64,000 nucleotides of DNA from Tricharina praecox (GCF_024521635.1 NW_026250404.1:2170001-2234000), one strand, 5' to 3'. Positions 19,230-52,005 are shown, counted from the first letter of the stretch. A program made the numbers and translations. The notes: a model not told the origin generated them from the letters alone.

Positions 19230-20804
19230 ATGAGCCGTTGTCGACTCCCGCTTCGGTGCTGTCACCCAGTCGCCGCCGCTCGCCAATCCGCCCCACCACC
19301 ATCCCTCCCGTTCCTCTACCAAACTCGCTCGATCTACAGCCCCGCCAACAGCAACAATAAGAGCACTAGAAGAGGAGGCGGAGGATGGAACGGCGATGGT
19401 GGTAGAGATAGCATGGTTGGCGAAGATATACCATTCGAAAACGCATCACTAAATGTAGAGGACTCATCGGATCCTTTCGCATATCTCTACACCCCACCAC
19501 CAAAGCCAATTGACCGACGTCCGCCACCCCCGATCTTCGCCGCAGCTCCACGGACAAAGCGACCTCACCACGACGCCGAGTTCCCACGGTCTTCAATCAC
19601 CCTTCGAGAGCGCGAAATCTTCACCCGTATCTTCGAGAGCATCCTCAACACTCCATCAGCATCCAACCGAACCTCTCCTCTCGCAAAATCCTTCGATGCC
19701 ACGCCACGAGCCCGTGGACTCCCGCCGCCGCCGGCGCTGACCGATCTTTTTACGAGCACCATCGGCCCGCAGAGCACGGGGGGAAATCTCAGTTTTGCGC
19801 CACAGCAGCTGGCAAGTCAGCGTGAAGGAGCAACCGCAGCCATGGCATTAGTCTCTACATTCGCCTCATACCCACCCTCGTTGCGTGCTGCTGCAGCACG
19901 CGCAGCAGGTCTCAAAGACTGGGCGACGGTGCAGAAACTCGAGGCACAGATCGATGTCGAAGCCCTCGAAGCAAAGAAACGGAGTCTCCGCGCTTGCTTC
20001 AGCGATGTCAAAGTCCTACAATGGATGGAAACACATGTTTACCCATTACCTAACGACCACTCTGCTCCCGAAGCGTCATTCTACGCAGAGCTCTTGGCTG
20101 AGGCTATGGATATCTTCCGGCGGGACTACAACGACCTCGGCAGCGTGGTAGCCGTCTTCGAGCGCGCGAAATCCCTCGGCGCAGAGTCCTACGTCCTTGG
20201 TTGTACCAGTGCGGTCTATAACCGCACACTCGCCGCAGTGTGGGATGGCTTCGGCGATATCATGCGTGTGCGTGATCTCGTCGAGGAGATGACTGTCAAC
20301 GCCGTTGGTGGAGACGTCCATACCGCCGAGATCCTCAAGAAGATCTGCGATAACGTCGATTCTACCTTCTCTGGGGAGAAGGGCGAGCTGGCCGCTATGA
20401 TGGTCGGACGACAGGAGATGGAATGCGTGGACTACCTGCGGAAGAGGGCCAGGAGACTCGAGGTTAACGGAACCCTCGACAAGCCGCCGGAGATCCAGGC
20501 TAGAGAGCGTGAGGAACGAGAGGCTGCCGCTCTGGAGAAGGGGGCGAAAACTAGGACTGCTAGAATGATGTCTGCGCTCAAGGGGCGGAGTGCTGTGAAG
20601 AGGCTGGATGTAGGTCCCGGACGGAGTGCGGCGGGTGCGGGACGGGGTGCGGGTCGAGATGATAGGCAGCAGGAGGGACGTAGAGTAGAGGGGAGGCGAG
20701 GACTCACCGGAAGGAAACCGAATTTCCCCGGCCGCGCTTCGGCGTCAGATATTCGGACAAGACAAGATGCTAGTAAAATATGGAACAGAGGAAAGGAGGA
20801 GTAG
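19230..20804 (+). CDS. MTF2: Mitochondrial Mtf2-like protein
   Basis: 524-aa ORF with an Arg-rich presequence-like N-terminus, REREIFTRIFESI, and C-terminal FERAKSLGAESYVLGCTSAVYN...W...EMTVNAVGGD motif typical of the Mtf2 family (from recall). Confidence 0.7.
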   Translation: MSRCRLPLRCCHPVAAARQSAPPPSLPFLYQTRSIYSPANSNNKSTRRGGGGWNGDGGRDSMVGEDIPFENASLNVEDSSDPFAYLYTPPPKPIDRRPPPPIFAAAPRTKRPHHDAEFPRSSITLREREIFTRIFESILNTPSASNRTSPLAKSFDATPRARGLPPPPALTDLFTSTIGPQSTGGNLSFAPQQLASQREGATAAMALVSTFASYPPSLRAAAARAAGLKDWATVQKLEAQIDVEALEAKKRSLRACFSDVKVLQWMETHVYPLPNDHSAPEASFYAELLAEAMDIFRRDYNDLGSVVAVFERAKSLGAESYVLGCTSAVYNRTLAAVWDGFGDIMRVRDLVEEMTVNAVGGDVHTAEILKKICDNVDSTFSGEKGELAAMMVGRQEMECVDYLRKRARRLEVNGTLDKPPEIQAREREEREAAALEKGAKTRTARMMSALKGRSAVKRLDVGPGRSAAGAGRGAGRDDRQQEGRRVEGRRGLTGRKPNFPGRASASDIRTRQDASKIWNRGKEE

Positions 20805-33539: not shown

Positions 33540-34985
33540 ATGAGTGTATGTTGCTCCCCCTTCCCCTTCCCCGGCCGGGCGCGTTCGGTCCAGCAGCTAA
33601 ACTCCGTGCGCTGAACAGGGAGGTTACGGGTATGTTCGATCCGCAATTCGCACCGCACGTCCACTCGCGCTCAACTGACCCGATCGCAACAGTAACCACG
33701 CGGCGTCGTCGAACCCGTATGCGCAGCAGCAAGACAGCTACAACCCATATGGCGGCGGACAAACCACAGCCTACAACCAAGAGCCCGCAGGTTCGCTCCC
33801 CCCCCTCCAACCCATCACTCTCTCCCCTCCCAGTCAGTTGTACGGAGAGAGGTTGATCCTGTTTTTCACCGTGTAATTGTTGCTTCAGAGACTAAAGTTG
33901 AACCGTACTCGCCTCTGAATTCAGGAAACTATGAGATGGGCAACCTGAATGGCGGAGGAGGATACACCGCGCCACCGCCGCAAGACAATGTCCAGGACTT
34001 CTACGCCGAGGTCGACCAGATCCGTGGTGGCATCGAATCCGTCAATGCCAATATCGCGCAGATCGAGAGCCTGCACCAGCGCTCGCTGAACGATATCGAC
34101 GAGGCCGCGCAGCAGATGACGACTAATCGCCTCGAGGCGCTGGTTACAGAGACGAGCGCGTTGAACACCAACCTGGCCACCAGGATCAAGGCCCTCAAGG
34201 GGAAGGCTTCGAGGGATCCCACCAAGGCCCCTCAGGTCGGTGTGTTGGATCGGAATTTCAAGGATTCCTTGAGGAAGTACCAGCTCGTCGAGAAGAGCTT
34301 TGCCGATCGGACGAGGGAGCAGATGGCTAGGCAGTACAGGATTGTCAAGCCCGACGCTTCCGAGGATGAAGTGCGACAGGCGTGTGAGGATTCGCAGGGA
34401 CAGCAGGTCTTCTCTCAGGCTGTGAGTATATCGCGCTCAGCTCCGCTCGACCACCACCCGAAACCGTACTGACGGACACATACAGCTCCTCTCCGGCAAC
34501 CGCCGCGGCGAAGCCCGTTCGGCGCTGCGAGAAGTCCAGGCGCGCCACACGGAGATTCAGCGGATCGAAAAGACCATCATCGAGCTGGCACAGCTGTTCA
34601 GCGAGATGGAGCAGATGGTCACGGAGCAGGACGAGATGGTGCAGGTTATTGACCAGCGCGGCGAGGAGATCACCCACAACGTCGATAAGGCCCAGGAGGA
34701 GATCGGTGGTGCCGTCGAAAAGGCCCGCTCCGCTAGGAGAAAGAAGTGGTGGTGCTTGTTGATCGCTCGTGAGTACTCCCTGGTTTTCTTGTCGTTGATT
34801 TGGCCTCCTTTGGTACCATGCCGAGGCGCCCTTCTCCGTTCCTGTTCGATGCCTGTTCGCCGGCACTCCACGGCATCTACTCTACTTGATGGCAAAATGT
34901 AATGGTATTAATCAACCTTATAGTGCTCATCATCATCATCATCGTCGTCATCGCGGTCGTGGTTACGCTCGTCAACAAGAAGTAG
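33540..34985 (+). CDS. SSO1: Plasma-membrane syntaxin (Sso1/2-type t-SNARE), 6 exons including 6-nt and 11-nt first exons
   Basis: Habc region (QIESLHQRSL...RQYRIVKPDASEDEV), SNARE motif EVQARHTEIQRIEKTIIELAQLFSEMEQMVTEQD, ARSARRKKWWC and a C-terminal TM segment. Confidence 0.93.
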
Positions 34986-37403
34986 TGGTGGGGGGGCAGC
35001 CCAGATAATTTTCGATTCCCGGCTTCTTCTTTTCTTCTTCTTCTTCTTCTTTGGGGGGAGGAGGGATGGAGGCGGACCTTACATACTACTACTTCTTCTT
35101 TTCTTACCGCTTTTACTTACTTAATCGCCCATTGTGTTTTTCTTCTTCGTGCGAATGTGGTTTTTTTCTTTTGTGGTTTTTCTCTTGTGTATGGTGTGGG
35201 TGTGGGTTTTGGTGAGGATTATGGTGAGGATTATGGTGAGGATTGTGGTGAGGTTTATGAGAGGAATTGTGGGGAATTGTGGGGAATTGTGGTATCTGTG
35301 TAGAATACATGTATACTCGTTTTTCGTTATGCATACTTCCTTACTCGTGGTGAATTGGGTTGTGCTATGATGTGGTTGATGCGGTGTGATGTACTGTGAT
35401 GCGGATGGCCCGTAGGATCCTTATCGATACCGTGATGGCACGGCTTGTACGGTCTCGAGGTGGGAGTTGTGTTACTGGTGGAGAAGGACCTTCTACCAAC
35501 CGTGGAGAACCTGTGTAGTGGACAGAGGCTCTGGGAATCATGTTCAAACTCAGCCAGCCATGCGTTAATCAGTTTGTAGGCCTTTACGTTGAAGGGCACT
35601 GGGTTTTTTTGGTCAAATCATCGGTACATACTCGCATTCAGTTACCATATACCTAGTGGTGTCTCCTACTCTCCACCCTCGGGGGCGCTCAGCCTTCTTC
35701 TCTCCATCTATAGTACCTACAAAGCAACCAATCTCGCAAATTTTTTTCATTTATTGATTGCGTGCGACCTATTTAGATCATGGCAATATCACCCCGTCAC
35801 CCCTCCGTTTCCACGCCACTGTCCAAACCTAACTTTCGTCAGGCGTCCCGATGTGGCTTTCCCTGCCCCCGTCGTGGCCTTTCCCAAAAATATATCGCCC
35901 CCGCGCCCGCACTCGCGCCCGCACCTGTTACAAAGCAACATATCTCTCAACATTGCACAGCCATATCCATCACCGTTTCCCACTCAAATCCGAGTGACAC
36001 GCCATGCGGCGACCATCAGTATTTACATATCTAATCTACCTATCTAATCAGATCTCGCACGCTCCGTCCGACCTCGGTGAATTCCTACCTGGTACCCCGC
36101 CTAGAGTATAGAGTAACTATGTGCCCGCATGACAACCACCACCATCGGTATGTAACCAAGAAGTTTTTTTCTTTCTTTCCGATATATGTATGCATACCTC
36201 GCGGGCACCGGGAACTAGTGGGCGTGAGACCTATCAGTGTTCGATGCGTGGCCGTGCTACATACTAGTTTGCAGAGATGGAGGGGGCGGGGGAGGTGGCG
36301 CTAAACGCGATGTTGTGTTGTTGTTGTTGTTTTGTCCGAGGAGTCGGGGAAGAGGGGGAAGAGGGAGAGGGAGAGGGGGGGAGCGTTGCGGTGTTTTTTC
36401 TTTGAGGAGAATGGGGAGAATGCTCGGTGGTGATTGGGCGCGCGGAAACCAGCGCTGCGGCGGCGATGGATGAGTGAATTCATGCCTTCGAGTCATGAAA
36501 TACCTATGGTGATGCCGATGATCGGTGCTCTAGATGCGAAGGTAGAGTACTCTATCATACCTATGGCCTTCCCGCCATCGCATGGCTCGGATACTCTACC
36601 TACCAAAGGTATCACCCTGGGGGAGAAATAAGCACTCACAGCAGCTGCAGCTCAGGGATGCAGGTGCATCATACCTACCTCTACTACCTACCCCGCCCTC
36701 CGCCGCGGTAAGAAATGTTTGCGAAGTCACAGGTATCACCAGACAACTCAGTACAAGTACAGCTGCTACCCTCCTCCTCCCCGAGCTTCAGGATTCAGTA
36801 AACAGCAGCGTCGGCGTTCGGAGCGTTATTATTCACAGCGACTTGGAATTCTACAGCTAGTACGTATTTCCCTTCTTCACCTCGGTCTGTGGGTGTGGAG
36901 AATCTGAAGAGGACGGAGGAGGGAATGAGGGAGGAGTGACGACCTGGAAGCCGGATGCATGCTATGCTACCTACCTGCCCACGAGTGGACAGATGGCACG
37001 CACCTGGCGTCATTTGATCTCATTCCCAGTTTCCCCATTCTCTTTTTTCTCCCTCTGCTGTTCCGTATATATCTCATCCTCCATGCCTGTCCGCCTGCTG
37101 ATTTTGCCGTCCGTACGTTGTCGATAGGTACATAGCTCCAACAATTATACACATTACATACGCATCATGCATTTCCTCTCGGTCCGCTGTCTGAACTGCC
37201 ACAACCTCGACACCTTCCCGCGGCTCAGCTACGACCAGGTCCCATTTTGCTCACAGGCACATCCCCCCGAGCTCCTCCAGCTCGTTATCCACAGCTAATA
37301 GATCCCCCAGTGCGCCTCGACCAACAGCCTCGTCCCCGAAGGTCCCCTCTCGGGGCCGACACCCACATCCACACCGACGCCTGCCCCGCCGCCACCGCCG
37401 CAA

Positions 37404-38108
37404 ATGTCCAGCGCAGACGACGACTTCGTCGCGCTCTTCAACCGCAACCTATTCTTCAGCCACCCACCGGCGGCCTCGCCGCCCACACCTCCCCTCACCA
37501 GCCCCGTAGCCGCCACATTTTCGATATCGCGGCACTACCACCACTCGTCGCACCCGGCGGTGGTGCAGCCGCCGCCCTCGCCGCCCTCGCCGCCAGCCAC
37601 CACCGCCACCTACGACGACGAGATGGCCGACGACGCATCGGCGCAGCTGCTGCATGAGCACCAGCAATCCTACTACCACCACCAGCAGCAGGTCAAGTCC
37701 TCGGACCGCGAATACGCCGAGTACCTGATGTCCTCGGACCTCAGCTCCCCCAACTCGCTCAACGAACTCGAGATCGCGCTTGCGCACGAAATAATCTCCC
37801 CCGTCGAGTACCAGCGCTCGCTGGAATCCTACACGCACCGCTCGCAGCTCGAAGAGAACGCGCGGCGCCACCAGGTGCTCATGGGTTCTTCCGGAGGGGG
37901 AGGGGCCGTGGCTCTGAGCGAGAACTGTAGTGCTATGGAGATGCTGGCTGCGGCGAAGAGGAGCAGCAACAACAACGTGCCAAGTCGGAGTGAGTGGTGC
38001 AATGATTACTACGGAGGCGATATGGGCTACGAGGACGAGGATGAGATGGCGCCGTGCGCGGTGTATACCGGTGCCAGTGGGTGCAGGTTGGCGCCGTTTG
38101 ATTATTAG
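37404..38108 (+). CDS. Hypothetical protein, 234 aa
   Basis: Single GC3-rich ORF with good start context (GCAAATGTCC), followed by a T-rich 3' region. Contains FSISRHYHHSSH. Confidence 0.65.
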   Translation: MSSADDDFVALFNRNLFFSHPPAASPPTPPLTSPVAATFSISRHYHHSSHPAVVQPPPSPPSPPATTATYDDEMADDASAQLLHEHQQSYYHHQQQVKSSDREYAEYLMSSDLSSPNSLNELEIALAHEIISPVEYQRSLESYTHRSQLEENARRHQVLMGSSGGGGAVALSENCSAMEMLAAAKRSSNNNVPSRSEWCNDYYGGDMGYEDEDEMAPCAVYTGASGCRLAPFDY

Positions 38109-40367
38109 GAAGAGGGGGCTTTTTTTTTATCGAGTGAGAGTGAGAGTGGGAGGGGGAATGGGGCGAATTGTTTTTCTAATTACATACGAAGTTTTTGTTA
38201 TACCTTTTCCGTTATTGTGGGTTTTGTAGGTATTCTGGGTACCTGGTCTAAAGGTGTGCTGCCGTGCTGTGCGGTGGTGGCTTCTGTACGTGAAGTACGT
38301 GTACGTTAGATTTTCTTTTACTTTTTTTCTTTTATACATCTTGTTCATTGCGAATTGGAATTGGCATGGGAAGGAGCGGGACGGGGAGGGCGTCATGTTA
38401 TGTACCTATGTTTGCGGGTTGTGCGTGCAGGTTGGTTGTGTATGTAGTTAAGTGGAATGAATGGATGGCGTTTTGGGGTGGTTGTTCACCGAGGTCCCGC
38501 GAGAACACCGACTATGTACCTACGAAGCAGTACTGAGATTGGTAGCTCTCGCGTGAAATCATTCTCGTCTATGTACGAAGTAGTTAAGTGAGTCTGCGGC
38601 CTATAGACGCGTCGACCAGCCAGCCAGCGCCGATGCTACCATACAGGAACCCTTCATGCCCGCCGGACCTGGATGGGCTCGCCGCTCCCCTTCGTCGCGT
38701 GATGAGGCCGTCCTGTCCTGTCCTGTCCTAATCCCAAGAGACGACGGAGTCCGCCTGCTGCTGCTGCACGTATAGGGTAGTAGACCCGGACTTCATCGTG
38801 CCTGCAGCCTGCGGGACCGCGAGAATCGAGTATGGTAAGCCGATGAGCGCGGTGATGCACTCTAGGTTGACTCAATGCAGCGCCGATTGAAGCGGGTGTA
38901 TGTATGTGGACGTATGTATGGAGAGCTTTAATCTTCTCGATCGTCGGCGCTGATCCTGGGTGTTCTGATAACGTGGCCGCCCGCCCAGTCCTGCCCAGTC
39001 CCACCGTCGCCGATGGGTGCGGAGGTGGTGCGGCGGTGGTGCAGCGGCGGTGCGCTGTGAAGTCTCAGACTCTCGGGCACTTGGGCACTTGGGCACTTGG
39101 GCACTTGAGTCTCAGTCACTTGAAGTCTTGGATGAATACTTGGATAAGAGTACTCGATACTTGGATACATGCGAACTACCACCTAGCAACTAGGGTATGA
39201 TAGTTAGCGGGCGGGGCGAGACCGTCGGATACACACGGTACCTAGTTGTGCGGGGAAGCAGAAAAAGACCGGGCTGGGGTTGGGACGTCCGAAGTGCGAA
39301 GGTCGCTCGCTCGCTCGCGCTCCCGGGCCGTCTGGACTCTGGTTTCCTTTTCCTTGTTGAACCATGGAGTGCTCAGTAGTGCCGAGCGAGCGAGCGAATG
39401 CGTGCAAGATAAAAATAGGTACGGATCAGTTCGAGGGTTCGAGGGTTCGAGGGTCCGAGGCTCAGAGTCGAGACATGGTGTGAACTTTGAAGGAGACGGA
39501 GACGGGGACGGAGACGGAGAGGGGCAGATGGGCAATGAGAAGCGAGCGAGGGGGAGGGACAGAGAATGTGAAAGGGAAAAAAGGAAAGGGAAAGGGAACG
39601 ATTCACGAGAAGTCAGGTTTGGAACTTTAGAGGCAGCGCTGCCGGAGTTACAGCATCTGGTGATCCCAACTCCAGCCAATCATCAATAGCAACCGGAATC
39701 CCGATTCCCCCTGTGCAGGCCCAGGTGCCATGAAGTCAGCGGCTGGCGAAACCCGCCATCCATACACACCCTCCCACCACCACCCATCAGACATCTAAAG
39801 CCTGCAGGGTGCCAGCAACCACCTCTGCGTACTCGAACTCTACCTACATGTGGTTTGGCTCAGATCGGGCGCGTGATGACGAGCCCATCCTGCCTGCATC
39901 TACTCTAACTTTCAACTTTCAACTTTTTGTCTTGGACCTTACCTAACGCCATACATACAAGACCGCGACACCGACAAGAAAGGCGGCATACATAAAGGTA
40001 CTTCTACGACCCTCTCCCTCCCTCCCCCACTCGGCCCGTGTGAGGAGAAATAACAATTGACACCGATAGACCCTCGACGACACTCTACGAACCACCGCTA
40101 CCACCACCGCGTCCTACAGCCCGTTACAAACAACAGACGTACAAACAACTATCCGCCTCACTGTCGGACATACCATACCATATCGCCTCTACCCCACTCG
40201 ATCGTAGCCTACCTCCTACCCAGCAGACCAACATCGAACAAACGTACGCGCTTCAACTCGACCGACCACGCACTTCGAGCGCTCATAAGTCCTCCGTCCC
40301 TCCTTCTCGTCCATTCACGAGCCATCCCGAAGCACCACCCGTCCGTCCACCGTCCACCATCCACAAA

Positions 40368-40675
40368 ATGTCGATCCGTCTTCCGCGCCAGACCGCGTTC
40401 ATCTTCCTCCTGGTCCTGCTCGGCCTGACAATGTACATCAGCCTTGCCAGCGCAACTTCGCAGACAGCTGAGAAGCGACAAAGTACGCATTCCTTCACAG
40501 TCTCCCCATCACCCGCAGACACATAGGCTAACGCGCAGCAGCATCGTCAGCCCCCTCCTTCCGCTTTTCGGTACACACCCACTCCGAGAGCGCGGTCAAA
40601 TACTCCATCAGCCCGATCTACGTCACGCTGTTCATCGGCGGGGCGAGCGTGCTAATCGCGGGATTGATGATATGA
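40368..40675 (+). CDS. Small (83 aa) secreted/GPI-like protein; exons 40368-40482 and 40539-40675
   Basis: Start context CACAAAATGTC. Intron GTACGC...GCTAAC...CAG keeps the frame. Hydrophobic N- and C-termini and a KR site. C/A-rich 5' and T-rich 3' flanks like the neighbouring genes. Confidence 0.7.
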
Positions 40676-41672
40676 TACAAACCATCACCACCGCCACCAC
40701 TCGTTCGGCCCACGATTTTACTATTTTACTATTTTTTTTATGGATGTGGGTGGGATTGGACTTTTGACTTTGACTTTGGCTTTGGGAGGGCGGGGCATGG
40801 AGTTTTTTTTTGGGGCTGATTAGCATCGGGTCGGGTCGAGGGGCTTTGGTCGGCGGGGGCGTATTCCTGTTTTTTCTTTCTTTCTTTCTTTTCTTTTCTT
40901 TTCTTTTCCCTTCCTGGTTTGCTGGAAATCGGGTTGCGCAAAAACGAGATACGATGTTATGAGTATGATTGATTGTTTGATTGACCGATCGCGAGAGTGC
41001 CCAGGTCAGCACGGAACGGATCCTCGGCTTTGCGGGGTTGGGTTGGGTTGGGTTGCGGACGGAAGAGCAGCGTGCCGACTGACCGACCGACCGACTTTTC
41101 TGCTGGCTAGCTGGCTGGATGACTGGCTGACTGAGTGCTGGCTGGCTTGGGAATGCGGATGTGTGTATGTAGTGTGACAGCAGTTATTGCTATGGACGAA
41201 TGGCTGGAGGTTGTCGAGTACTAGTAGTGGTGGGTGGTGCTATGTAAATTATTACCGTGAGCGATCAGGTTTTGCACCTGGAAGTCGGGAAGTCGGGAAG
41301 TCGGGACCTGGATGGGGGCGGGGCGGAGGCTTCAATTCAATTCAAGTCCAGCCTTTCTATGTACTTGCACAAGTTTATTCGCCAAAAGAAGTGGCGGCTA
41401 AGAAGTTAGAACTACATATAATTGCACGTGATTCTTTTAGTCCCCAGTCCCCGTGACCCCCAAATACAAGCCCCGCCATCTGCCCCACCACCACCACTTC
41501 TCCCGATAAGTACCTACATCGCCTCGTCCGTCCGCCATATTTCCCACCTTCGCTTCCACGTCCACCACCACCACCACCACCACCACCACTGTCGATACCC
41601 CGCCCCGCGCCGCCCAGCCCCAGCGTTCCTTTCGCCGAAAAGAAAAAGAAAAAAATAAAGCACAGGAAAATC

Positions 41673-42707
41673 ATGGTGCCGCCGCCAAAGACCTGGGGTG
41701 TGTCCCTCCTCTGTGACTCCACGGCGATGGTGATGGTGATGACTGACGACACGGACAGAGGACGAGGAGGACGAGTCCTCCGAGGAGGAAGAGAAAGCCA
41801 GCAAGACCGTCGCACTGGGCTCGAAAAAGAAGTGGGACGACGAGGAATCCGACGACGACGTTGGCGCCCCCTCCCCCCGCTCCCACTCCTGCTCCTGCTC
41901 CTGCTAACGCACTCTTCCTTCCTTAGGTAATTGATTCCTGGGACGCAGCAGACGACTCCGAAGAGGAGCGGAAGAAGGCGGACAAGAAGGCTTCTGCGGC
42001 CGCGGCGGCCGCCGCCGACGCGCTCGCGAACAAGAAGAGCACTGCGGAGCGGCTGGCGGAGAAGAAGGCTATGACGGCGGTGCAGCGGGCGGCGGAGGAG
42101 GCGGCGCGCGACGCGCTCGAGAACGAGACGCCGGCCGAGAAGCGCGCGCGCATGCAGGCGCGCGAAATCGAGGCGGACCTTGCGCACGCTGAGGATCTGT
42201 TTGGTGCTGTGGGCATTGGTGCGGGGAGTGGAAGAGAGGTTAAGACCGCCGCGATTGTCGATCCCAAGGATCCGACCAAGGTGGTCGATCTCTCGAGCTT
42301 GGAGATCTTCAAGCCTACGACGAAATTGCAGTTCGATGCGCTGAGGGAGGTCATCACGCCGCTGATAGCCCAGAATGTTAAGAAGGGCCACTACAGCATG
42401 TTCCTGCAGGAGTTTGCGAAGGCTCTGGCAAAGGACATGAACAGTGAGCAGATCAGACTTGTTGCTAGCAAGCTCACGGTCCTGTCGAATGAGAAGCAGA
42501 AGGAGGAGAAGGATGCGCAGAAGGGCGGCAAGAAGAAGGTGGCGCCCAAAAAGGCGGCTCTGGCGGCGTCTGGAAAATCCATGGACACGGCGGATACTAG
42601 GTCTTACGCTGATGCCTACGACGATTTGTGAGTTTCTTTTATCCCACTTCCAGCCACGTAGTCCCAGAACTTTGAGACTGACTCATGGTAGTGACGACTT
42701 CATGTAA
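41673..42707 (+). CDS. HCR1: Translation initiation factor eIF3 subunit j, 3 introns
   Basis: KKKWDDEESDDD|VIDSWDAADDSEEE...EADLAHAEDLFG...IFKPTTKLQFDALRE...LSNEKQKEEK...DDFM C-terminus. Confidence 0.94.
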
Positions 42708-43121
42708 ACGCCTCGACGCTTCTGGATTGCTCGTGTGATAGAAAAAAAGTTGCGGATGCGGGATGAGCGGAGGTCTTTCTTTCATTTGGCTGGTTACATG
42801 TACTTGATTGGTGTTCAAGGCTGGCTTTTTATGGGGTTGGGTGGGGCAGTAGACTCGGCGTGGCTCTGAATTTACACCTTTTCATACTTTCGTCTTCTCA
42901 GTCTGGGCGGGTGAGAATTGTGGAAATGACTTGCATCGGCCATCACTCACAATGGAATCAACTCTTTGCATTTCTGAATACTCGCATTCTCAACTGCAGA
43001 ACGAGAGCACAAAACGGCCATCTCGCAGAATAGTGTCTTTGATAGCATTATATACAAATTCCAGTAACTCCTCCAGAGACCGAAAAAACAACTTTTTTTT
43101 GATATCCCTCTCGCCCACAGC

Positions 43122-44228
43122 TCACATCTTCCTCCTCTTGGCGGCCATGCCCTTCCTGCCCTCGTAATGCTCACCGATATTCTTCCCCTCGCCCTCGCCA
43201 CTCTGCCGCTTCCTACTCTTGTCGAGCGCCTTCTCACCGCGCCCACTCCTTCCGACCCTAGCGGTGATCCTATCCAGATCACCCGCGAAGCCCCTCCAAT
43301 CCTCACCACCAAACTTATCCGCGGCCGCAAGCATGCCCTTCTGCCTACCCGCACGAGCCTCCTTCTTGCTCGGCTTCGGCAACCGCACCAGATTCGCCTC
43401 CTCGAACTCCTGGCGCTCATGCTCCACCCGCTTATCGCGCGCCGACTTATGTCCGCCACGACCACCATCCACGATCGTCGTGCCAATCGACGGCTGCGCC
43501 AGTGGCGCCGTGCTCAGCTCGTCGGTGACGAAGTCGTCGAGGAGGTGCGCCCGCGGCAAACGCTCCGCCTTCTTCTCGCGCCCCACGGTCGTAGGCATGC
43601 TCGTGGCCGCGATGCGTGGCGGCCGGTACACTCCGACTCCGTCCGCAGCCTTCTCGTCGTCGGCGGCGGCACCAGCCTTCCCGCCAGCCCGCAGCAGCGA
43701 AGACGGGTTCGGTCGGTGTGCCAGATCCGCGGGCGCGGTAGCGGCCGCCGTGGCGAGCAGCGCCTTACGCCCCGCACCCTCGTCTTCCGACCCTGCGCTC
43801 TCGTCGCCGGAATCACTTTCTTCCCCGCCCTCCTCCTCTCCATCCTCGCCCTCGCCCTCCCCACGCTCACCCCTCCCCGCCGCCACAACGACCTTATCGA
43901 TCTGATACTTGAGCTTCATTTCCAGCGGCCTGACGGCGCGCTCCAGCAGCAGCCTTAGCTTGACCAGCGCGTCGACGGCGGGTGAGCCTTGCAGCGGCGC
44001 GGAGCGCAGCCGCAGCAGCGAGAGGAAGACGAGGTGCTGCAGATACGAGAGGAGGACGTCGTTCTTGACGTCGAGGAGGGAGATCCCGTTGCGTGGCGCG
44101 GAGATCAGGGCGCTGTCTGAGGTGGACGGGAGGGAGGTGTGCGTGCTGCTGAGCGAGGCCGCGAGGGTGCTGAGGTGGGTGAGGAGGTCGGGGGGTGCGG
44201 CGGAGGAGGGGGCGGGTGGGGTGGCCAT
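43122..44228 (-). CDS. LCP5: U3 snoRNP/SSU processome protein Lcp5 (neuroguidin; Sas10/Utp3/C1D family)
   Basis: NGISLLDVKNDVLLSYLQHL...LVKLRLLLERAVRPLEMKLKYQIDK; VYRPPRIA; ERQEFEEANLVRLP. Confidence 0.92.
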   Translation of the reverse strand: MATPPAPSSAAPPDLLTHLSTLAASLSSTHTSLPSTSDSALISAPRNGISLLDVKNDVLLSYLQHLVFLSLLRLRSAPLQGSPAVDALVKLRLLLERAVRPLEMKLKYQIDKVVVAAGRGERGEGEGEDGEEEGGEESDSGDESAGSEDEGAGRKALLATAAATAPADLAHRPNPSSLLRAGGKAGAAADDEKAADGVGVYRPPRIAATSMPTTVGREKKAERLPRAHLLDDFVTDELSTAPLAQPSIGTTIVDGGRGGHKSARDKRVEHERQEFEEANLVRLPKPSKKEARAGRQKGMLAAADKFGGEDWRGFAGDLDRITARVGRSGRGEKALDKSRKRQSGEGEGKNIGEHYEGRKGMAAKRRKM

Positions 44229-46913
44229 GGTTGGGTGTGTGCGTGTGTCTGTGTGTCTGTGTGTCTGTGTGTGGAGGTGGAGGAGGAGCAGCCGTGGAAA
44301 GCGGGAAGGTGGGATGGCACTGCGCAGAGGTGGTGGAAGTTTAAATCGGATTGGGAATTTTTGGGGATTGACACAGGGATGTGTGCTTTTGGTTTAGTTA
44401 GCGTACCTACAAAGTTAGCGTGGTGAGCTTCTGTTGATGGGGTCATGGAGTGGCACTCGCACTCGCACGGGCCCGATGAGTTTGCCGGGGGATTTCGTCG
44501 AGGGATTTGCTTTGCCTTTCAACTGCCTTTCAACTGCCCAAGACGCAGGGTCTAGGTGGGGTACGGGCTAATACACCGAGCCAGTGGTTTGAACTGTGGG
44601 AAGGACGTGGAAAATTGCAGGTACATACGCCACCATGATCTCTATGATGGCCCATGGATCGTAACTTCGTAAGTTTACTATAGACTCAGAGTTCCAAAAC
44701 GACTAGGTACGCAATCTCGAAACGTAGGCCGCATAAGCCCCGAGAGTTTAAGGAGAGGGTTTTCTTCTACCTCCTGGCCACATTATGGTGCGATCTAGAA
44801 GTCTCCACCCTTCTGGCTGGTTTCATAAAAGAAACGAGGCATGAGGTCAGCGGGACTCTCGCGTTCCGGCGAGCCCAAATTGCCGACAGAAAGCTGGTTG
44901 GTTCAGCGCAATAACAGTATTCTACATCGTGGAGACTTCGGAGAGTAAAGATATGGTATACATAGTAGAAGCTATCTGGCGTCACTAGCTCCTCGAAAGA
45001 CAAAATACGCATGAAAAAGGGCAGTGACACAGGATATCACTCGCTAGAAGGCGACATTGACAAATTTGTACTGCTGGAGGAAAGTGTGCCTTAAACCATC
45101 ATTAGAACCACCATGATATAAATCAAAACCCTTCATTAGCACCTAAAGAACAACTCTATCCAAGTAGCCATAGTCTTAATCCGGGTGTTTGTGGTGGGTC
45201 CGGCTGGGTGGAGGAGTGGCCGTTTCTGAGGCGATTTTGGAAATTGGAACTCCAGCGCGCCTCCATTCATGGGATAGCAGCAACTATTATAACGTACTGT
45301 ACTTTCTTAAATCTTTTAAATTCCATGCTAAGCACCCGAATGATATAGAGTCGTATGTACCTATCACAACAGAAGAATGTATGATGTATGTGACATCGGA
45401 GGAAATGCCGAAGGCCCAATACCTACGGGCGTGTGACCTACCCAGTGGGCGGAGTATTAAGCTTCAGACATCCGGCCATCAACCACGTTTTAAGTTTTAA
45501 CCACCCAGCCGTGCACCGGCCTTCCCCCCCGCGACCTCCCAGCGATCACCAGATTGGTTGTTCGCCGTTCCTTTGTTGCCTTGATCCCATCGCCCCCACG
45601 CCCCTCTCAGTCACCACAGCTATCACCCCCCCACCCCGCCCCCTCACGTCGACCCGCAAAACCTGCACTCCGCGTACCTGCACTCCGCGTACCTGCACAC
45701 TGCGTAGCGGCGTATGTAGGCGGGTAGTTATCCCACCCTGTCCCACCCCACCCCACGCCATCCCACGCCATCCCACGCCACCCTATCGGTCGGTCCCTCA
45801 GTCCCCCCACCGCCGGGAATCAAAAGCCGGTGCTGTGCGTACTGCGATCTCGATGATGTTGTGTCACTCGTGACGAGCAGGTATCAGGAATGTTGGAAAC
45901 GTGGATGCAACATTCCAGCCCCGTCGAAGGGGTTTCATAAGGGAACTAGGAAGGAACTAGGAGGGAAGGAAGGGAGGGAGGGGAGCAACTGGTTTCTGGG
46001 TGCTGGCTGGCTGGAGCTAGAGGGACTGGAGGGGCTGGAGGGAGAGGGGCTGGCAGGATTGGATACGGCGAGTGAATACTGGAGTCGCTGTGGGTTGGCA
46101 ACCTGGGGAACAATGGTGTTTTGGCCCATCTGGAGGTAAAACACTGATGATACGACGATGTCTACAAGGAACCGGAACGAAGTATGATACTTTCTATAAG
46201 TGAAGCCGCCATGTAACTCCACAAAGTACGTACACACAGCACACCGACGTAGTGAGTGAGAATGATGATACAAAAGATGTTTAAAGAATGTTACAGATGC
46301 ATTGAAGAAAAGAAAAACCGGCAAAACCCCCTCCTTTTGCCAGTCTGTCCCAGTAGGTAGTTCCGTCACCCGTTACTTCAAAAAGTAAAGTAAAATACAA
46401 GAAAAAGGCAACCCCTCATGTCCATGTAAGTTAAGTACCATAGTAGATTACACCCTGAAGTAGAAGAAAAGAAAAAGAAAGTTGTAAGACCATCGACTGC
46501 CGGAAATGAAGGTAGGCAGCACCCATTCCGTATACAACACAGCGATGGTATGTACTTAAAGTAGTACTTAATGATACATGGAAAAGAAAAGAAAAAAATG
46601 CATTACAAAGTCAACCGATTTCAAAAACTACCCAAAAAATAAGGACATGGATCGAATATTTAGTCGGTCGATCTCGATACTGGAAACGGCCCGAAATTGC
46701 TGTGTGTTGCGTTGCCGGAGGGGATTCGGTCGCCGTTTAGATATATCGAGGTATGGTAATAGCCGTGGAAGAGGGAAAGAAAATATTCGTTCATGGTAGT
46801 CGATTCGTCGGTCCGCTAGGTGTACTGGAAGGGCTGGGGGTTAATCGGTTGTAACTAGATTGGAAGCGAGTGGGGAAGAGAATAAACTTACTCGTTGGTC
46901 GGTATTGATCGGT

Positions 46914-47942
46914 CTAATTGCGGGGAGGCTTGCCAACGGAGGGGATCCAGTCAGGCTCGGGAGCGGCCTCACGCTTTGGGGGCTTGCCGACGGAGGGGAT
47001 CCACCCAGGCTCGGGAGTGGCCTCACGCTTCGGGGGCTTGCCAACAGAGGTGATCCAGCCAGGGGCGGGAGCGGCCTCACGCTTCGGGGGCTTGCCGATG
47101 GTGCTAATCCACCCAGGCTCGGGAGCGGCCTCACGCTTCGGGGGCTTGCCGATTGTGGAAATCCACCCAGGCTCGGGAGCGGCCTCACGCTTGGGTGGTT
47201 TGCCGATTGTGGAAATCCACCCAGGCTCGGGAGCGGCCTCACGCTTCGGGGGCTTGCCGATTGTGGAAATCCACCCAGGCTCGGGAGCGGCCTCACGCTT
47301 GGGTGGTTTGCCGATTGTGGAAATCCACCCAGGCTCGGGAGCGGCCTCACGCTTGGGAGGTTTGCCGATTGCGGAAATCCACCCAGGCTCAGGAGCGGCC
47401 TCACGCTTCGGGGGCTTGCCGATGGTGCTAATCCACCCAGGCTCGGGAGCGGCCTCGCGCTTCGGGGGCTTGCCGATTGTGGAAATCCACCCAGGCTCGG
47501 GAGCGGCCTCACGCTTGGGTGGTTTGCCGATTGTGGAAATCCACCCAGGCTCGGGAGCGGCCTCACGCTTGGGAGGTTTGCCGATTGTGGAAATCCACCC
47601 AGGCTCGGGAGCGGCCTCACGCTTGGGTGGTTTGCCGATTGTGGAAATCCACCCAGGCTCGGGAGCGGCCTCACGCTTCGGGGGCTTGCCGATTGTGGAA
47701 ATCCACCCAGGCTCGGGAGCGGCCTCACGCTTCGGGGGCTTGCCGATGGTGCTAATCCACCCAGGCTCGGGAGCGGCCTCACGCTTCGGGGGCTTGCCAA
47801 TTGTGGAAATCCACCCAGGCTCGGGGGCGGCCTCACGCTTCGGGGGCTTGCCGACTGATGTGATCCAGCCGGGCTCTGCGGCGGGCAGAGCTAAAATGCC
47901 AGGGGCACAGGACAGAGCGAGAAGCAATACCTCAGGCCGCAT
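46914..47942 (-). CDS. Kex2-processed repeat protein (KEP) precursor; candidate alpha-type pheromone precursor with 18 peptide copies
   Basis: Signal peptide MRPEVLLLALSCAPGILA, then 18-aa units EAAPEP-GWISTIGKPP-KR (KR plus X-A/X-P dipeptides). Many differences between units are synonymous in this frame. Confidence 0.92.
   Translation of the reverse strand: MRPEVLLLALSCAPGILALPAAEPGWITSVGKPPKREAAPEPGWISTIGKPPKREAAPEPGWISTIGKPPKREAAPEPGWISTIGKPPKREAAPEPGWISTIGKPPKREAAPEPGWISTIGKPPKREAAPEPGWISTIGKPPKREAAPEPGWISTIGKPPKREAAPEPGWISTIGKPPKREAAPEPGWISAIGKPPKREAAPEPGWISTIGKPPKREAAPEPGWISTIGKPPKREAAPEPGWISTIGKPPKREAAPEPGWISTIGKPPKREAAPEPGWISTIGKPPKREAAPAPGWITSVGKPPKREATPEPGWIPSVGKPPKREAAPEPDWIPSVGKPPRN
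46925..47880. repeat. 54-bp coding tandem repeat, about 18 units
   Basis: The Trp-codon context recurs every 54 nt from about 46945 to 47863. Confidence 0.97.
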
Positions 47943-48142
47943 GCTGAAACGATGGTTTGTCGGGTGTAAGGAACGGCCGTTATCGAGTGTGAAATCGGAG
48001 ACGAATCGGAGAGAGCAATGAATGCGGTCGGTATGAATTGCCGAAGATGAGCGCCGGAGGAAGATGGTCTGTGTCTTTAGAGTGAAAGACTGAGGAATGT
48101 TGCTGGTGAGGAATGTGAGTAGAAGGTCGGATATCTTCTGTC

Positions 48143-48148
48143 TTTATA
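48143..48148 (-). promoter_or_regulatory. TATA box of the KEP precursor gene
   Basis: TATAAA on the minus strand about 200 nt upstream of the ATG, followed by a pyrimidine-rich leader. Confidence 0.55.
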
Positions 48149-49668
48149 GGATAAAGTTTCCAGTTGGGAGGGATGAGTACTTTTCAAGGGAAACACCGTG
48201 GTGAAGGTGGGAGGGAAACGGTGGGCCATGTGGTATAACTGTTCTCATGTAAGGAGCAGTGTGGGTGTCGGCCTGCCTGTCTGTTAATGGACATTCGTGA
48301 TCTCCACGGGCGGGCCGTTTGAATGGAGCGTCCAAGGTCCCACACAATCACTTGACATCACTCGTGGTGGCGTCAACACCACCCTTTTGCCGCCCTCACC
48401 GAAAAATAAAACCCAACGAAAGCGGTAGGGAGGACGAGGATCTCCATGAGCTTGACATCGTATCTTAGGTCAGGCGCTAAAAGGGTGAAATCTAGTGCTC
48501 TCTTCACCGTCCAGAGGATGGCCGCCGCCACCAAGTTTTGAGGCCCTAGTCCGGACACGCCCGTCTGGAATGTCCGTTCTGGAAGGTTCTTAGCCATGAG
48601 ATACGTATAGCCATCGTGCTTAAAAGTCCTTTTGCATCGCGGCGTAACGCTCGCTTCCGCTTAGATGCGCCGAAGAAAATTGAGGAGGTGGATGGTACGC
48701 ATGTGGGACTCCTTCATGATTCCATTCAGACCCCTATTAGGATTAGTGTGTTTCTCTGTGCTGAGGGGACACAATTTATGATTCGTCATTTCCAGCAAAA
48801 ATGTATACGCTAACTCCCAAACGGGGTCTGAACGAAGTGCCAGAACTCAATTCCGGCGCTTCCGACGTCCTTGGTGATGGCAACTTCTTTGTTCCGCCTA
48901 CCTAAAACATGTAAGGTCATGAGGCAAACGCTGAAGCCAACAGGTAAGATTTCGTTGACTATCACGCACAGTGTAACGTATGGTTCCCACGCCGTGTGGA
49001 TAGCTTCGGCTGGACGGGTATGGAGAGGTAAAGATACTCTATCTGTGTAGCTAAGCGAGAGGCCGTCTATGGCGCACCCCGTCGCGCCATAGATCAATTT
49101 ACTATCTCTCGATGAGGTGAGAGAAGTAGGGTGACGGCGTTCGAGAAACGAAAGAGTGTTGATTACATGCGATGTGAGGAGAGGCAGGCGGATGTATTTT
49201 GGTTTGCTCATTCACAGTGCATTCTCGGTATAGCGTTTGCAATGTGGCAGAGGCTTTGAATATGGTGGATTCCAGATTCACTCCTGCGATAGGGCCAAGC
49301 TGGCGAGAACCATCTCAACTGCAGCCTCGTAACTTGGCCCCCATCTCGACTCCAATAGGCGAAGAACTCCTCTCGATCGCAATCCCCGCCGCGCCGTCCG
49401 TCGCCACCGGCGTTGGCGATGAGACTGTCCACCAGTGCCAGGCTAAAGTGGTCTTTCAAAGTGTTCGTCCTGCTCTCCCTCCCTAGGAGGCGATATTGCA
49501 CAGGTGGTCTTGCACCTCACGCGGATCATCACAGTCCGGGGCATCCAAAGTCGAAGAATGTGGAAGTCCTGATATTTCCATCGATGCTATTGAAAACCAC
49601 AAGCGTCGAGCAACACCAACATCTCGATACCATTGAAGTTGGGCCCGCCCCGTCACCAACTCCATCAT

Positions 49669-50546
49669 CTAACCGTATATGGAAGCCAGAATGAAGGCGG
49701 TTCCGAAAGACACCCTACTCAGCAGCACCAAGCAGTCAGTTAATGTCATCCTGTTCAAATTTGCGAAGAACAAGCGTCTCTGTGACTAGAATGATAGTGG
49801 AAGTGAGGCGGTGTTTTGTCCCAAAATTGCGTGTTGCATAGCAGCATTCAACGCCATTCATGTAATGCACAGAATCCGAGAGTTGAAGTTTCATCAATAA
49901 TGCCATCAATACAAACCAAGCGGGCTTCTGTATCATCGATGCTCCAAGAGGGTTTCCACCGACGAGGAATCAGAGGGCATGGCGAATCCAAACGAAATAA
50001 GGGGGCCCACTTGAATGCAGTGTTCTTCATTATCAATCCTCTCACATCCACCTCCTCCGCCCAACGCCTAAGCTTCCCAGCAGGCACGAGATCGATTCCT
50101 TGCCGTGCGAGAGTCTACCGGGCACATCAAAGTCAGTCATGATCCCCGTTGTGGCAATCTCGGGTCTTGTGTGAATGTTGGTTGACCCCTCGCGGGGATC
50201 GCCGAAGGAAACCCACCTCAACTATCAACATCAACGCCCCAAGAATCAAGCACAGCGTCTTCCCGAAACGGGAGACACACAGGCCTAGCCCCATGCCCAC
50301 GAAACTGCCCGTCGAGATCTGCCGATAGATCGCTGGATTGTATCCGTTCCGGTTCCTTGGTGGTGGGGCCATAGGCTTGCGGCTCGTCCCCCAGGGTAAT
50401 CCGAATCCGCCGAAGGCCGAGCTGGGAGCTTCGCATCGGTACGTCGCAAACAGACTCGACGGCCTATTGCCACCGTGACTGAGATACCCGAGGCCGGCGG
50501 CGGCACCGAGAACGGAAATGGGAGGCGCAAAGAGTCGGAATGCCAT
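49669..50546 (-). CDS. FUN14: FUN14-family mitochondrial outer-membrane protein; exons 50546-50217, 50114-50011, 49714-49669
   Basis: RQISTGSFVGMGLGLCVSRFGKTLCLILG..LIVE|TLARQGIDLVP...KNTAFK|VSFGTAFILAS; canonical splice sites. Confidence 0.85.
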
Positions 50547-52005
50547 TGTTCGTAAGCGTTGTTGTTGATGATGAGGTTCGGTGATGCTGGTGATACCGGG
50601 CGGGCGAGATCAACGTAGCTACGGCTTGGTAGTTTGATGACGTCGCGCCTCAATCCACCGTACCTTGGCGGTTGTTAGTACCACGCGATCCGTGCTCTAC
50701 ACGCATAAGCGCGGCAAAAGTAATGGCCAAGCATATGTAAAGGACTTCAGCTGCTTTCCTGTTTGGACAGAATTCCAAACAGCGAGAGCAGAGACGCCGA
50801 AAGGCCTGTAAATAGAGCAGGTTAGGATAACCAATGTGATGCCCCTTTCCAAATTCAGTCAACGATTACCGTCGAGTTTATGACCACGACGAGCGTCGAG
50901 TGTCTAGGTAGTTTAAGTTCTTTAGGCAATCAGTTGGGGCCCAACCGAAGTATAAACGGTCCCATGCTTTTGACGACAAAGGCTTACGACGCACTTCCTA
51001 CTCTAGTAGCTTCTGACAGAGTGGTATGACACCGGGTGGACTCGGGACTCGAGATATCTTGGATAGTGTATACGGAGCTCGTGCTTGCCTTGTTACGAGG
51101 GTGTAGATTTGCGGATTCAGCTCCGAATGCCGGAGGCCCGAACTCGACCTGACCTCGAAGCTCCCGTGCCGAATCGTGGTCTACCTATCACGTTCCGATC
51201 GTAAGCGTGCAGCGCTATCTCAGCACATACTTAGCCGGAAAACCATCGCACAGTGCACAGTGCCTCAGCCGAGCTGCGAGCAAACATCGCCTCGCACCGC
51301 TTTCGAGTACCTGTTGACGCTGGTCGGTGTTTCTCCAACCTCAAAGTTCTCCAAGATTGGACCGTAACCAGCACCAGTAACTCGCAATGCTTTGCAGATC
51401 AACATCTACCGTCCTTCCTTTCTATCAATACCGTCCTTCCTTCTATCAATACCCTTCATCCATCCTTTCTGCATACCTGCCTTTGATCCGGATCGAAGCG
51501 AGTGATCCTCCATTCTTGAGTAGGTACCGTACGACACCACTGGTTTCCCCTCGCCACTAGACCGCACAGCCACACAGCCTTCGGTTACACTTCACGCTAA
51601 GGAAGCTTGCGCCACACCGACTATTGCAGCTAGCGCAGACACTTTTTTATTCGACCAACCCAACCCTCCCACTTCGCACAATCATTCTGGCACTCCATCG
51701 CAGTCACAAAGCCCTTCCATCCACCCCCACCAGGGCAACACCAAAGGTTCGTGATCCGCTTCCCCCCCAACCCCCCCATATTGGAGGTTGGTGATACACA
51801 ATTCATCAACCCCAACAACGCTTCACTCTTTCCCTTGATTGAATGAGTGTGGCTCTTGTGGAATTGAATATCGCTAAGCTCCTGTCGCGCCCATCGTCGT
51901 CGCTCTCGCGTCGTCATTGACCCCCCACCATCTCCCCCCATGAGGAGAGAGGGGAGGGGTTAGTGCGACAAGAGTTGTCGACGACTGCGCGGATGTTTAC
52001 TGTAG

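Follow-up and report, generated by a model that had tools for sequence, protein, structure and literature searches.

Does the tandem-repeat gene found in a stretch of Tricharina praecox DNA encode a mating pheromone, some other secreted peptide signal, or the precursor of a modified peptide? The gene lies on the minus strand at positions 46914..47942 of a 64,000-nucleotide stretch (GCF_024521635.1 NW_026250404.1:2170001-2234000; hereafter the window), where the ORF list and translation give an ATG-initiated reading frame of 342 codons plus a stop. The protein begins with a signal-peptide-like N-terminus of about 19 residues (MRPEV...GILA; 47886..47942, minus strand), recognized by hydropathy and by its layout of a basic n-region, a hydrophobic stretch of about 14 residues and a small-residue c-region; the Kyte-Doolittle mean over 9 residues reaches 2.7. 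A 54-nucleotide tandem array (46945..47854, minus strand; Tandem Repeats Finder and unit table) encodes 18-residue units, each made up of three dipeptides, a 10-residue core and KR, and the units occupy residues 19–342 of the precursor. Tandem Repeats Finder assigns the array a period of 54 nucleotides, 16.9 copies, 92% matches and a score of 1470, which is far beyond chance.

Translation of the units yields 18 cores: thirteen GWISTIGKPP, two GWITSVGKPP, and one each of GWISAIGKPP, GWIPSVGKPP and DWIPSVGKPP, the last of which is terminal and is followed by RN and the stop codon. KR follows 17 of the 18 cores, and splitting at these 17 sites gives a 36-residue first piece (the hydrophobic start and the first core), sixteen 18-residue units and the last unit. 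All 17 spacers are in X-A/X-P phase with three dipeptides each (15 EAAPEP, 1 EAAPAP, 1 EATPEP), and the LP-AA-EP that follows the hydrophobic start is likewise in dipeptide phase with the first core. The core count and core variants reported by an earlier reading made from the DNA alone (the sequence-only reading) are reproduced exactly, and the alpha-factor-type architecture it described, with signal peptide, KR sites, in-phase dipeptides and 10-residue cores, is exact. An antisense reading frame on the plus strand (47098..48021) was dismissed as a by-product of the repeat, as the orientation of the 3'UTR intron described below is that of the minus strand. Kex2-processed repeat proteins (KEPs), as defined by Le Marquer et al. 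2019 (PMC6339444), combine a secretion signal with at least three similar motifs that are split by KR, RR or KK and make up at least 15% of the protein. Here the n/h/c layout and hydropathy point to a putative signal peptide, and 18 motifs are split by 17 KR sites; the best reading is that the gene encodes a secreted KEP-class polyprotein.

Relatives of the precursor were sought with word-indexed searches (188–599 aa), exhaustive HMMER searches and a family profile (59–279 aa). These searches recovered the precursor P0001, the P0116 sequence and a group formed by P0060, P0117 and P0118, along with weak matches of canonical pheromone type (P0002 and P0119). Only P0001 was clearly related in the exhaustive HMMER search; the other 80-odd matches, of which 16 were inspected, were rejected as unrelated Pro/Gly-rich or bacterial repeat proteins. 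Six of the chance matches (P0007, P0033, P0055, P0057, P0083 and P0086) form a bacterial-looking family of their own, secreted and with tandem units of about 18 residues such as SGWTWTEGxDGRRVVYP. P0002/P0113 (416 aa; metagenome, Logan) is a separate repeat protein with NSRCQRPGQPCS cores of the canonical Cys-pair type, which are preceded by AAPEPGW and split mostly by single R or SR instead of KR; it is possibly the precursor of an alpha pheromone and, if so, one that depends on atypical cleavage sites. The word-indexed, HMMER and profile searches yielded no named Pezizomycete protein, and a cluster look-up of P0001, P0060 and P0002 returned no names.

The closest relative, P0001, has the same signal peptide as the window precursor, EA-DP-EP spacers, eight copies of SWIPGVGKPP and a PPRN end. 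Two further loci were reached through a neighbouring gene of the Sas10/Utp3 family (43125..44228, minus strand; Pfam PF04000, E 2.5e-16), which serves as a synteny anchor and whose family assignment bears out the earlier label of LCP5. Both loci are from metagenomes, and their anchor genes are 73% (L001) and 59% (L002) identical to that of the window. L001 carries a P0001-type gene with eleven copies of SWIPGVGKPP about 8 kb from Sas10/Utp3, the two being separated by a local inversion of the Sas10/Utp3-eIF3j block. When positions 6900-20700 of L001 are compared with 33700-48000 of the window, the block inverted relative to the syntaxin and peptide genes comprises Sas10/Utp3, eIF3j and two unnamed genes. 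The different copy numbers of the SWIPGVGKPP precursor, eight in P0001 versus eleven in L001:19476-20123, reflect either copy-number variation between strains or collapse of repeats in assembly. L002, to which P0116 corresponds in type, encodes a KEP of 112 residues with the cores AWFPDGGNPSI, KWIPLKGKGPH and two DWIPLQGKGPH, separated by LA-DP and WA-DP spacers.

In the synteny comparison proposed by the sequence-only reading, L002 keeps the order of the window on one strand (small membrane gene, KEP, Sas10/Utp3), and L001 has the inverted block. In the window, the upstream neighbour is a three-exon gene for a small membrane-like protein of 159 aa (49669..50546, minus strand; gene model and spliced contigs of runs X2 and X3), and a homologue of one of its exons adjoins the L002 precursor gene. 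The earlier label of FUN14 for this neighbour was not confirmed, as its exon ORFs had no Pfam match at E up to 0.05.

The more distant group has cores of the form [K/E]WVPMPGEPI, and the first repeat of P0060 is TWCPMGGEPI, followed by WVPMPGEPI. P0060, P0117 and P0118 are three ORFs with KWVPMPGEPI repeats on a single 5351-bp metagenome contig; they are either tandem members of a gene family or pieces of a single gene split by introns or frameshifts. Every unit in the family alignment has the same W, G and P, the same KR, and the same A and P in its dipeptides, giving the core consensus x-W-[I/V]-x-x-x-G-[K/E]-P-x, in which the first residue may be G, S, D, K, E, T or A. In the window and L001 precursors the terminal copies end in PPRN; the L002 cores end in GPH. 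Of the units in the window array, those at the edges (WIPSVGKPP) are closest to the L001 core, which suggests that a derived variant expanded recently to form the central WISTIGKPP block. The position of the window among the ascomycetes was judged from its Mtf2-like neighbour (19230-20801). Its best named relatives are from Wilcoxina mikolae (57%), Sphaerosporella brunnea (56%) and Pyronema omphalodes (51%), with further relatives in Rhizina undulata (37%) and Choiromyces venosus (34%), and the comparison of this protein places the window in the Pezizomycetes, near the Pyronemataceae but outside all five of these genera.

Variation at synonymous sites, spliced RNA and the same kind of gene, with different cores, close to the same neighbours in two related contigs together establish that the gene is real. 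In the window, one 18-mer is encoded by thirteen units whose DNA exists in 6 versions; these differ at nine sites, including a Ser-Thr pair that is written as TCC-ACA or AGC-ACC. Differences among the repeats fall almost entirely at synonymous sites, and nearly all amino-acid changes are in the edge units; only about one quarter of random single-base changes in a unit would be silent. Because the thirteen units maintain one peptide in six DNA versions, and because L001 does likewise (9 internal units, 7 DNA versions, one peptide), selection acts on the encoded peptide.

The stretch is also present in soil metagenome runs, two of which are DNA runs (X1 and X4). Splicing with GT..AG joints is evident in two further runs, X2 and X3, at 42628-42691 in eIF3j and at ~49714-50009 and 50115-50216 in the neighbour upstream; both runs leave the bins 44672-45673 and 51018-51685 empty, and both bins are covered by X1 and X4. 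These joints and empty intergenic bins indicate that X2 and X3 hold spliced RNA. The precursor gene is transcribed, as both of its ends are covered by RNA contigs of the two runs. The gene start and leader are covered by contigs of X2 (47827-49714) and X3 (47769-48102). An X2 contig that joins 46108-46824 to 46892-47028 spans the last two repeats, the stop codon, an intron joint and a long 3'UTR. The 67-nucleotide intron in the 3'UTR (46825..46891, minus strand; GTAAGT...CAG) starts 22 nucleotides past the stop codon and is supported by this single contig of a single run, with 137 nucleotides on its short side. The second 3'UTR exon extends to the limit of the RNA contigs (46108..46824, minus strand) and is also covered by an X3 contig (46218-46790). 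Within 47029-47768, parts of the array have no contig listed for either RNA run, the pattern that collapsed repeats should give. The X2 contig 47827-49714 is continuous between the final exon of the membrane-protein gene upstream (stop at ~49669) and the start of the peptide gene, which implies either a 3'UTR of at least ~1.5 kb for the upstream gene or read-through into the promoter and leader of the peptide gene.

Similar to L001, in which a matching box is located at -214, the window gene has a TATAAA box (48143..48148, minus strand) 206 nucleotides upstream of the ATG. The MAT1-1-1 motif YYATTGAB (PMC8022922) is absent from the 1 kb upstream of the gene in the window and in L001, with one occurrence at -940 in L002; no Ste12-type TGAAACA lies within 1 kb upstream of the window gene, and a scan for HMG sites was negative or at background. 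These motifs are derived from Eurotiales and yeast and may not transfer. The promoter, free of MAT1-1-1 and Ste12 motifs, would suit an orphan KEP, one that yields the same linear peptides for an extracellular signalling role other than mating while a separate ppg1 lies elsewhere in the genome. Transcription in two RNA runs of possibly vegetative condition favours the same explanation.

Maturation of the polyprotein by Kex2, Ste13 and Kex1 is proposed by analogy, with the order of steps modelled on the established alpha-factor pathway as given in the background sections of PMC6339444. Signal peptidase would take off about 19 residues, and Kex2 would cut after each of the 17 KR pairs. A Ste13-type dipeptidyl aminopeptidase would then strip the dipeptides that stand in X-A/X-P phase (LP-AA-EP before the first core, EA-AP-EP between cores), while Kex1 would trim the C-terminal K and R. 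The predicted output is about 18 linear, unmodified peptides per protein, most of them GWISTIGKPP. All 21 of the spacers in the relatives are in dipeptide phase (L001 10/10, L002 3/3, P0060 3/3, P0117 3/3 and P0118 2/2), and this strict phase in every family member is the strongest internal evidence for Ste13 processing. The sequence-only reading had suggested that the Pro-Pro end may resist Kex1 and leave a Lys. The last core of L002 ends in GPH at the stop codon, exactly where KR would begin, and this arrangement supports a mature C-terminus free of K and R, with which normal Kex1 trimming would fit better than a retained Lys. Linear x-W-[I/V]-x-x-x-G-[K/E]-P-x peptides released from a Kex2/Ste13/Kex1-processed precursor are the best reading of the product.

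The most likely role of these peptides, with about an even chance of being correct, is that of an alpha-type (Ppg1/MF-alpha-like) mating pheromone. GWISTIGKPP would act on a Ste2/Pre2-type receptor of a Pezizales fungus, with both Cys of WCxxxGQxC replaced and G-Q replaced by G-K. Section 8 of PMC6339444 notes that, among Ascomycota, a STE13 signature is as a rule reserved for alpha-type pheromones. This restriction counts against an orphan KEP; the clean multi-dipeptide signature found here is not reported there for most orphan KEPs of ascomycetes. Alpha-factors are described in PMC10569646 as cores of 9-14 aa that follow STE13 XA/XP dipeptides and precede KEX1/2 sites, in up to 18 repeats (Botrytis fragariae). 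The core length of 10, the copy number of 18, the in-phase spacers and the KR sites of the window precursor fit this published range.

As in Ppg1, Ccg-4 and PpgA, a signal peptide leads directly into tandem short cores, each preceded by in-phase X-A/X-P dipeptides and followed by KR; copy numbers up to 18 and the lack of a DUF3328 neighbour are also shared. The cores also agree in having W near the N-terminus, G at +5 and P at +7 from W. WISTIGKPP matches the Sclerotiniaceae peptide WCGRPGQPC in length and in the W1, G6 and P8 positions, and the WCPMGGEPI of P0060 has equal spacing. The argument from W-x4-G spacing made by the sequence-only reading is strengthened by these relatives, which keep the spacing of W, G and P. 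With its WC, the first repeat of P0060 resembles a link, and possibly an intermediate, between the Cys-free and canonical types; this tie to the canonical peptide argues against placing the family among orphan KEPs.

Unlike Ppg1, Ccg-4 and PpgA, the window cores have no Cys pair, contain G-K in place of G-Q and lack a C-terminal aromatic residue. The earlier statement that the Cys pair is missing from the cores stands, but its absence is less unusual than was implied, as section 8 of PMC6339444, citing Martin et al. 2011, describes Cys-free alpha pheromones of Pleosporales with the C-terminal motif PYG[L/M]P[I/V]G. These have the same KEP architecture and show that alpha-type pheromones of Pezizomycotina can lack both Cys, although their core motif is unrelated and they belong to another fungal class. 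MF-alpha1/2 of Saccharomyces cerevisiae follow the same Kex2, Ste13 and Kex1 logic to a linear unmodified product (PMC6339444), but differ in their long pro-region and in having 2-4 copies of a 13-residue peptide.

Neither MF_alpha nor MF_alpha_N of Pfam matches the precursor, for which Pfam gave only a sub-threshold chance match. In the Protein Atlas, the MF_alpha cluster was at rank 4 with a score of 0.81 and the best matches were unnamed clusters (0.84-0.87), all below the reliability line. P0119, a canonical-type precursor, was reached by the family profile at E 5.5e-4 through spacer residues; apart from such weak matches, Pfam and HMMER did not detect membership of the precursor family in a sequence family with validated alpha precursors, which sets it apart from Ppg1, Ccg-4 and PpgA. 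A GQ or PG beta-turn dipeptide, found in "the vast majority" but not all of Leotiomycete alpha-factors (PMC10569646), is absent from the window cores, which read I-G-K-P or V-G-K-P. The L001 and L002 cores also have G-K, and P-G occurs only in the distant P0060 group. The lack of either dipeptide is a further point in favour of an orphan KEP.

The pheromone genes of this group of fungi appear difficult to recognize. In the genome paper of Pyronema confluens (PMC3778014), all parts of the pheromone pathway were found except the pheromone genes, which were not findable by homology. Such an escape would be expected if the pheromone of the family is of the present divergent type, and it speaks against an orphan role. 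Among the rows of Umemura's table examined, none of the Pezizomycete KEPs bears the flag for a fungal pheromone. The same table assigns KAA8908145.1, a KEP of Sphaerosporella, to type #2, which also contains the canonical pheromone precursors, and this protein was not among the relatives found by the word-indexed, HMMER or profile searches. On these grounds Sphaerosporella, from a close family, may own a canonical-type precursor, which would favour an orphan role for the gene studied here. The sequence of a Tuber alpha-pheromone is said in PMC3864998 to be known, and for desert truffles a published table gives receptors and processing enzymes without a precursor. Like the cores of the window, the Tuber alpha-pheromone is not known to contain Cys.

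An orphan KEP is a real possibility, if one short of even chances. The peptides would then serve a purpose such as self-signalling, hyphal communication or interaction with other organisms. Several KEPs per genome are the rule, with 7-9 in Pyronema and 6 in Sphaerosporella and 11 in Fusarium graminearum, in which deletion of 6 non-pheromone KEPs gave no sexual phenotype (PMC10589705). Tuber borchii and T. magnatum have a single KEP each (PUU72457.1 and PWW72679.1). In PMC7329392, 2560 of 7878 KEPs stand alone. Like the precursor of the window, the orphan KEPs described in PMC10589705 have secreted, KR-separated repeats without known function and are often lineage-specific. A more specific version, offered as tentative, is that Pezizales have another linear peptide signal, not recognised before, which this gene encodes and the pheromone-processing machinery produces. 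It would have a receptor of its own, coexist with a canonical ppg1 and act outside mating, for example in hyphal self-signalling or as a signal to plant or microbial partners in soil.

The remaining readings are unlikely even when taken together. One of them, itself very unlikely, is a RiPP precursor: other parts of the genome would encode enzymes that cyclise the cores or modify them in another way. Precursors of ustiloxin and phomopsin (UstA-like) also combine a signal peptide with short KR-separated cores; the KEP architecture is common to ustiloxin-type precursors (PMC7329392), and the window represents only 64 kb of the genome. However, UstA-like cores contain Tyr and their genes lie beside DUF3328/UstYa genes, neither of which is true here. 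Tyr is the cross-linking residue of dikaritins. No Tyr is present in any core of the window, L001, L002, P0060, P0117 or P0118. No DUF3328/UstYa match was obtained by Pfam scans of 204 of the 210 stop-to-stop ORFs of at least 100 aa in the window (the six omitted are those on the repeat array), of 81 of the 100 ORFs of 60-99 aa between 38000 and 57000 (the 19 omitted lie on the eIF3j, Sas10/Utp3 and SPP41 coding regions), or of 123 of the 148 ORFs of L001 and L002. Other tailoring enzymes were likewise absent from the scanned ORFs of the window. DUF3328 genes are on average 3.09 genes from their KEP (PMC7329392). The neighbours in the window are all housekeeping genes, with Pfam matches to an ankyrin protein, ribosomal L5/L11, LSM, Mtf2, GPP34, syntaxin, eIF3j, Sas10/Utp3 and SPP41. 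The earlier claim that UstYa/DUF3328 genes are absent from the window holds in these scans, and its preference for a linear unmodified peptide over a cyclic RiPP is upheld by the absence of tailoring genes. The lack of both a DUF3328 gene and Tyr in the cores instead matches the pheromone KEPs of PMC7329392, which have no DUF3328 neighbours.

A host- or partner-directed mimic of plant peptide hormones (CLE/RGF/CEP-type) is highly improbable. Many Pyronemataceae live with roots or in burnt soil, and the GPH ends of the L002 cores and the PPRN ends of the terminal copies in the window and L001 recall the His/Asn ends of such peptides, which the cores also resemble in an aromatic residue at position 2 and Lys-Pro-Pro near the C-terminus. 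Against this, trimming would leave 17 of the 18 window cores with Pro-Pro at the end and not His or Asn, the first residue of the core is not conserved, and Trp, unlike the Tyr of the plant peptides, cannot be sulfated. A structural Pro-rich wall protein ranks low among the explanations.

The architecture of the precursor is textbook, and the peptide family was not found in searchable papers and supplements. The exact peptide strings had no match in a literature search blind to PDFs and subscription papers, and short motifs of the relatives and of a truffle peptide gave only irrelevant matches. The supplements of PMC10569646, PMC7329392 and PMC6339444, as far as accessible, gave no match either; key tables are partly PDFs, which makes this absence weak evidence. 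Alpha-type pheromones are sparsely documented in Pezizomycetes. This class of early-diverging filamentous ascomycetes includes truffles, morels and fire-following cup fungi. Judged by its precursor, the peptide is a good candidate mating pheromone for a group in which the gene is hard to find. The precursor family is conserved and transcribed, lacks Cys and has a clear consensus, which makes it a concrete candidate for synthesis and for assays on Ste2-type receptors. If the peptide is a pheromone, it would add to what is known of the changes open to the WCxxxGQxC peptide; if it is not, it would be a well-defined orphan signalling peptide with three sequence variants for comparison.

One further observation concerns the DNA between the 3' end of the peptide gene and the Sas10/Utp3 gene. 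Contigs of both soil DNA runs (X1 and X4) break at 45088-45119, within the interval 44672-45673 in which X2 and X3 are silent, and their loose ends continue in unrelated sequence. This break may mark a structural variant or a mobile insertion that differs between strains.
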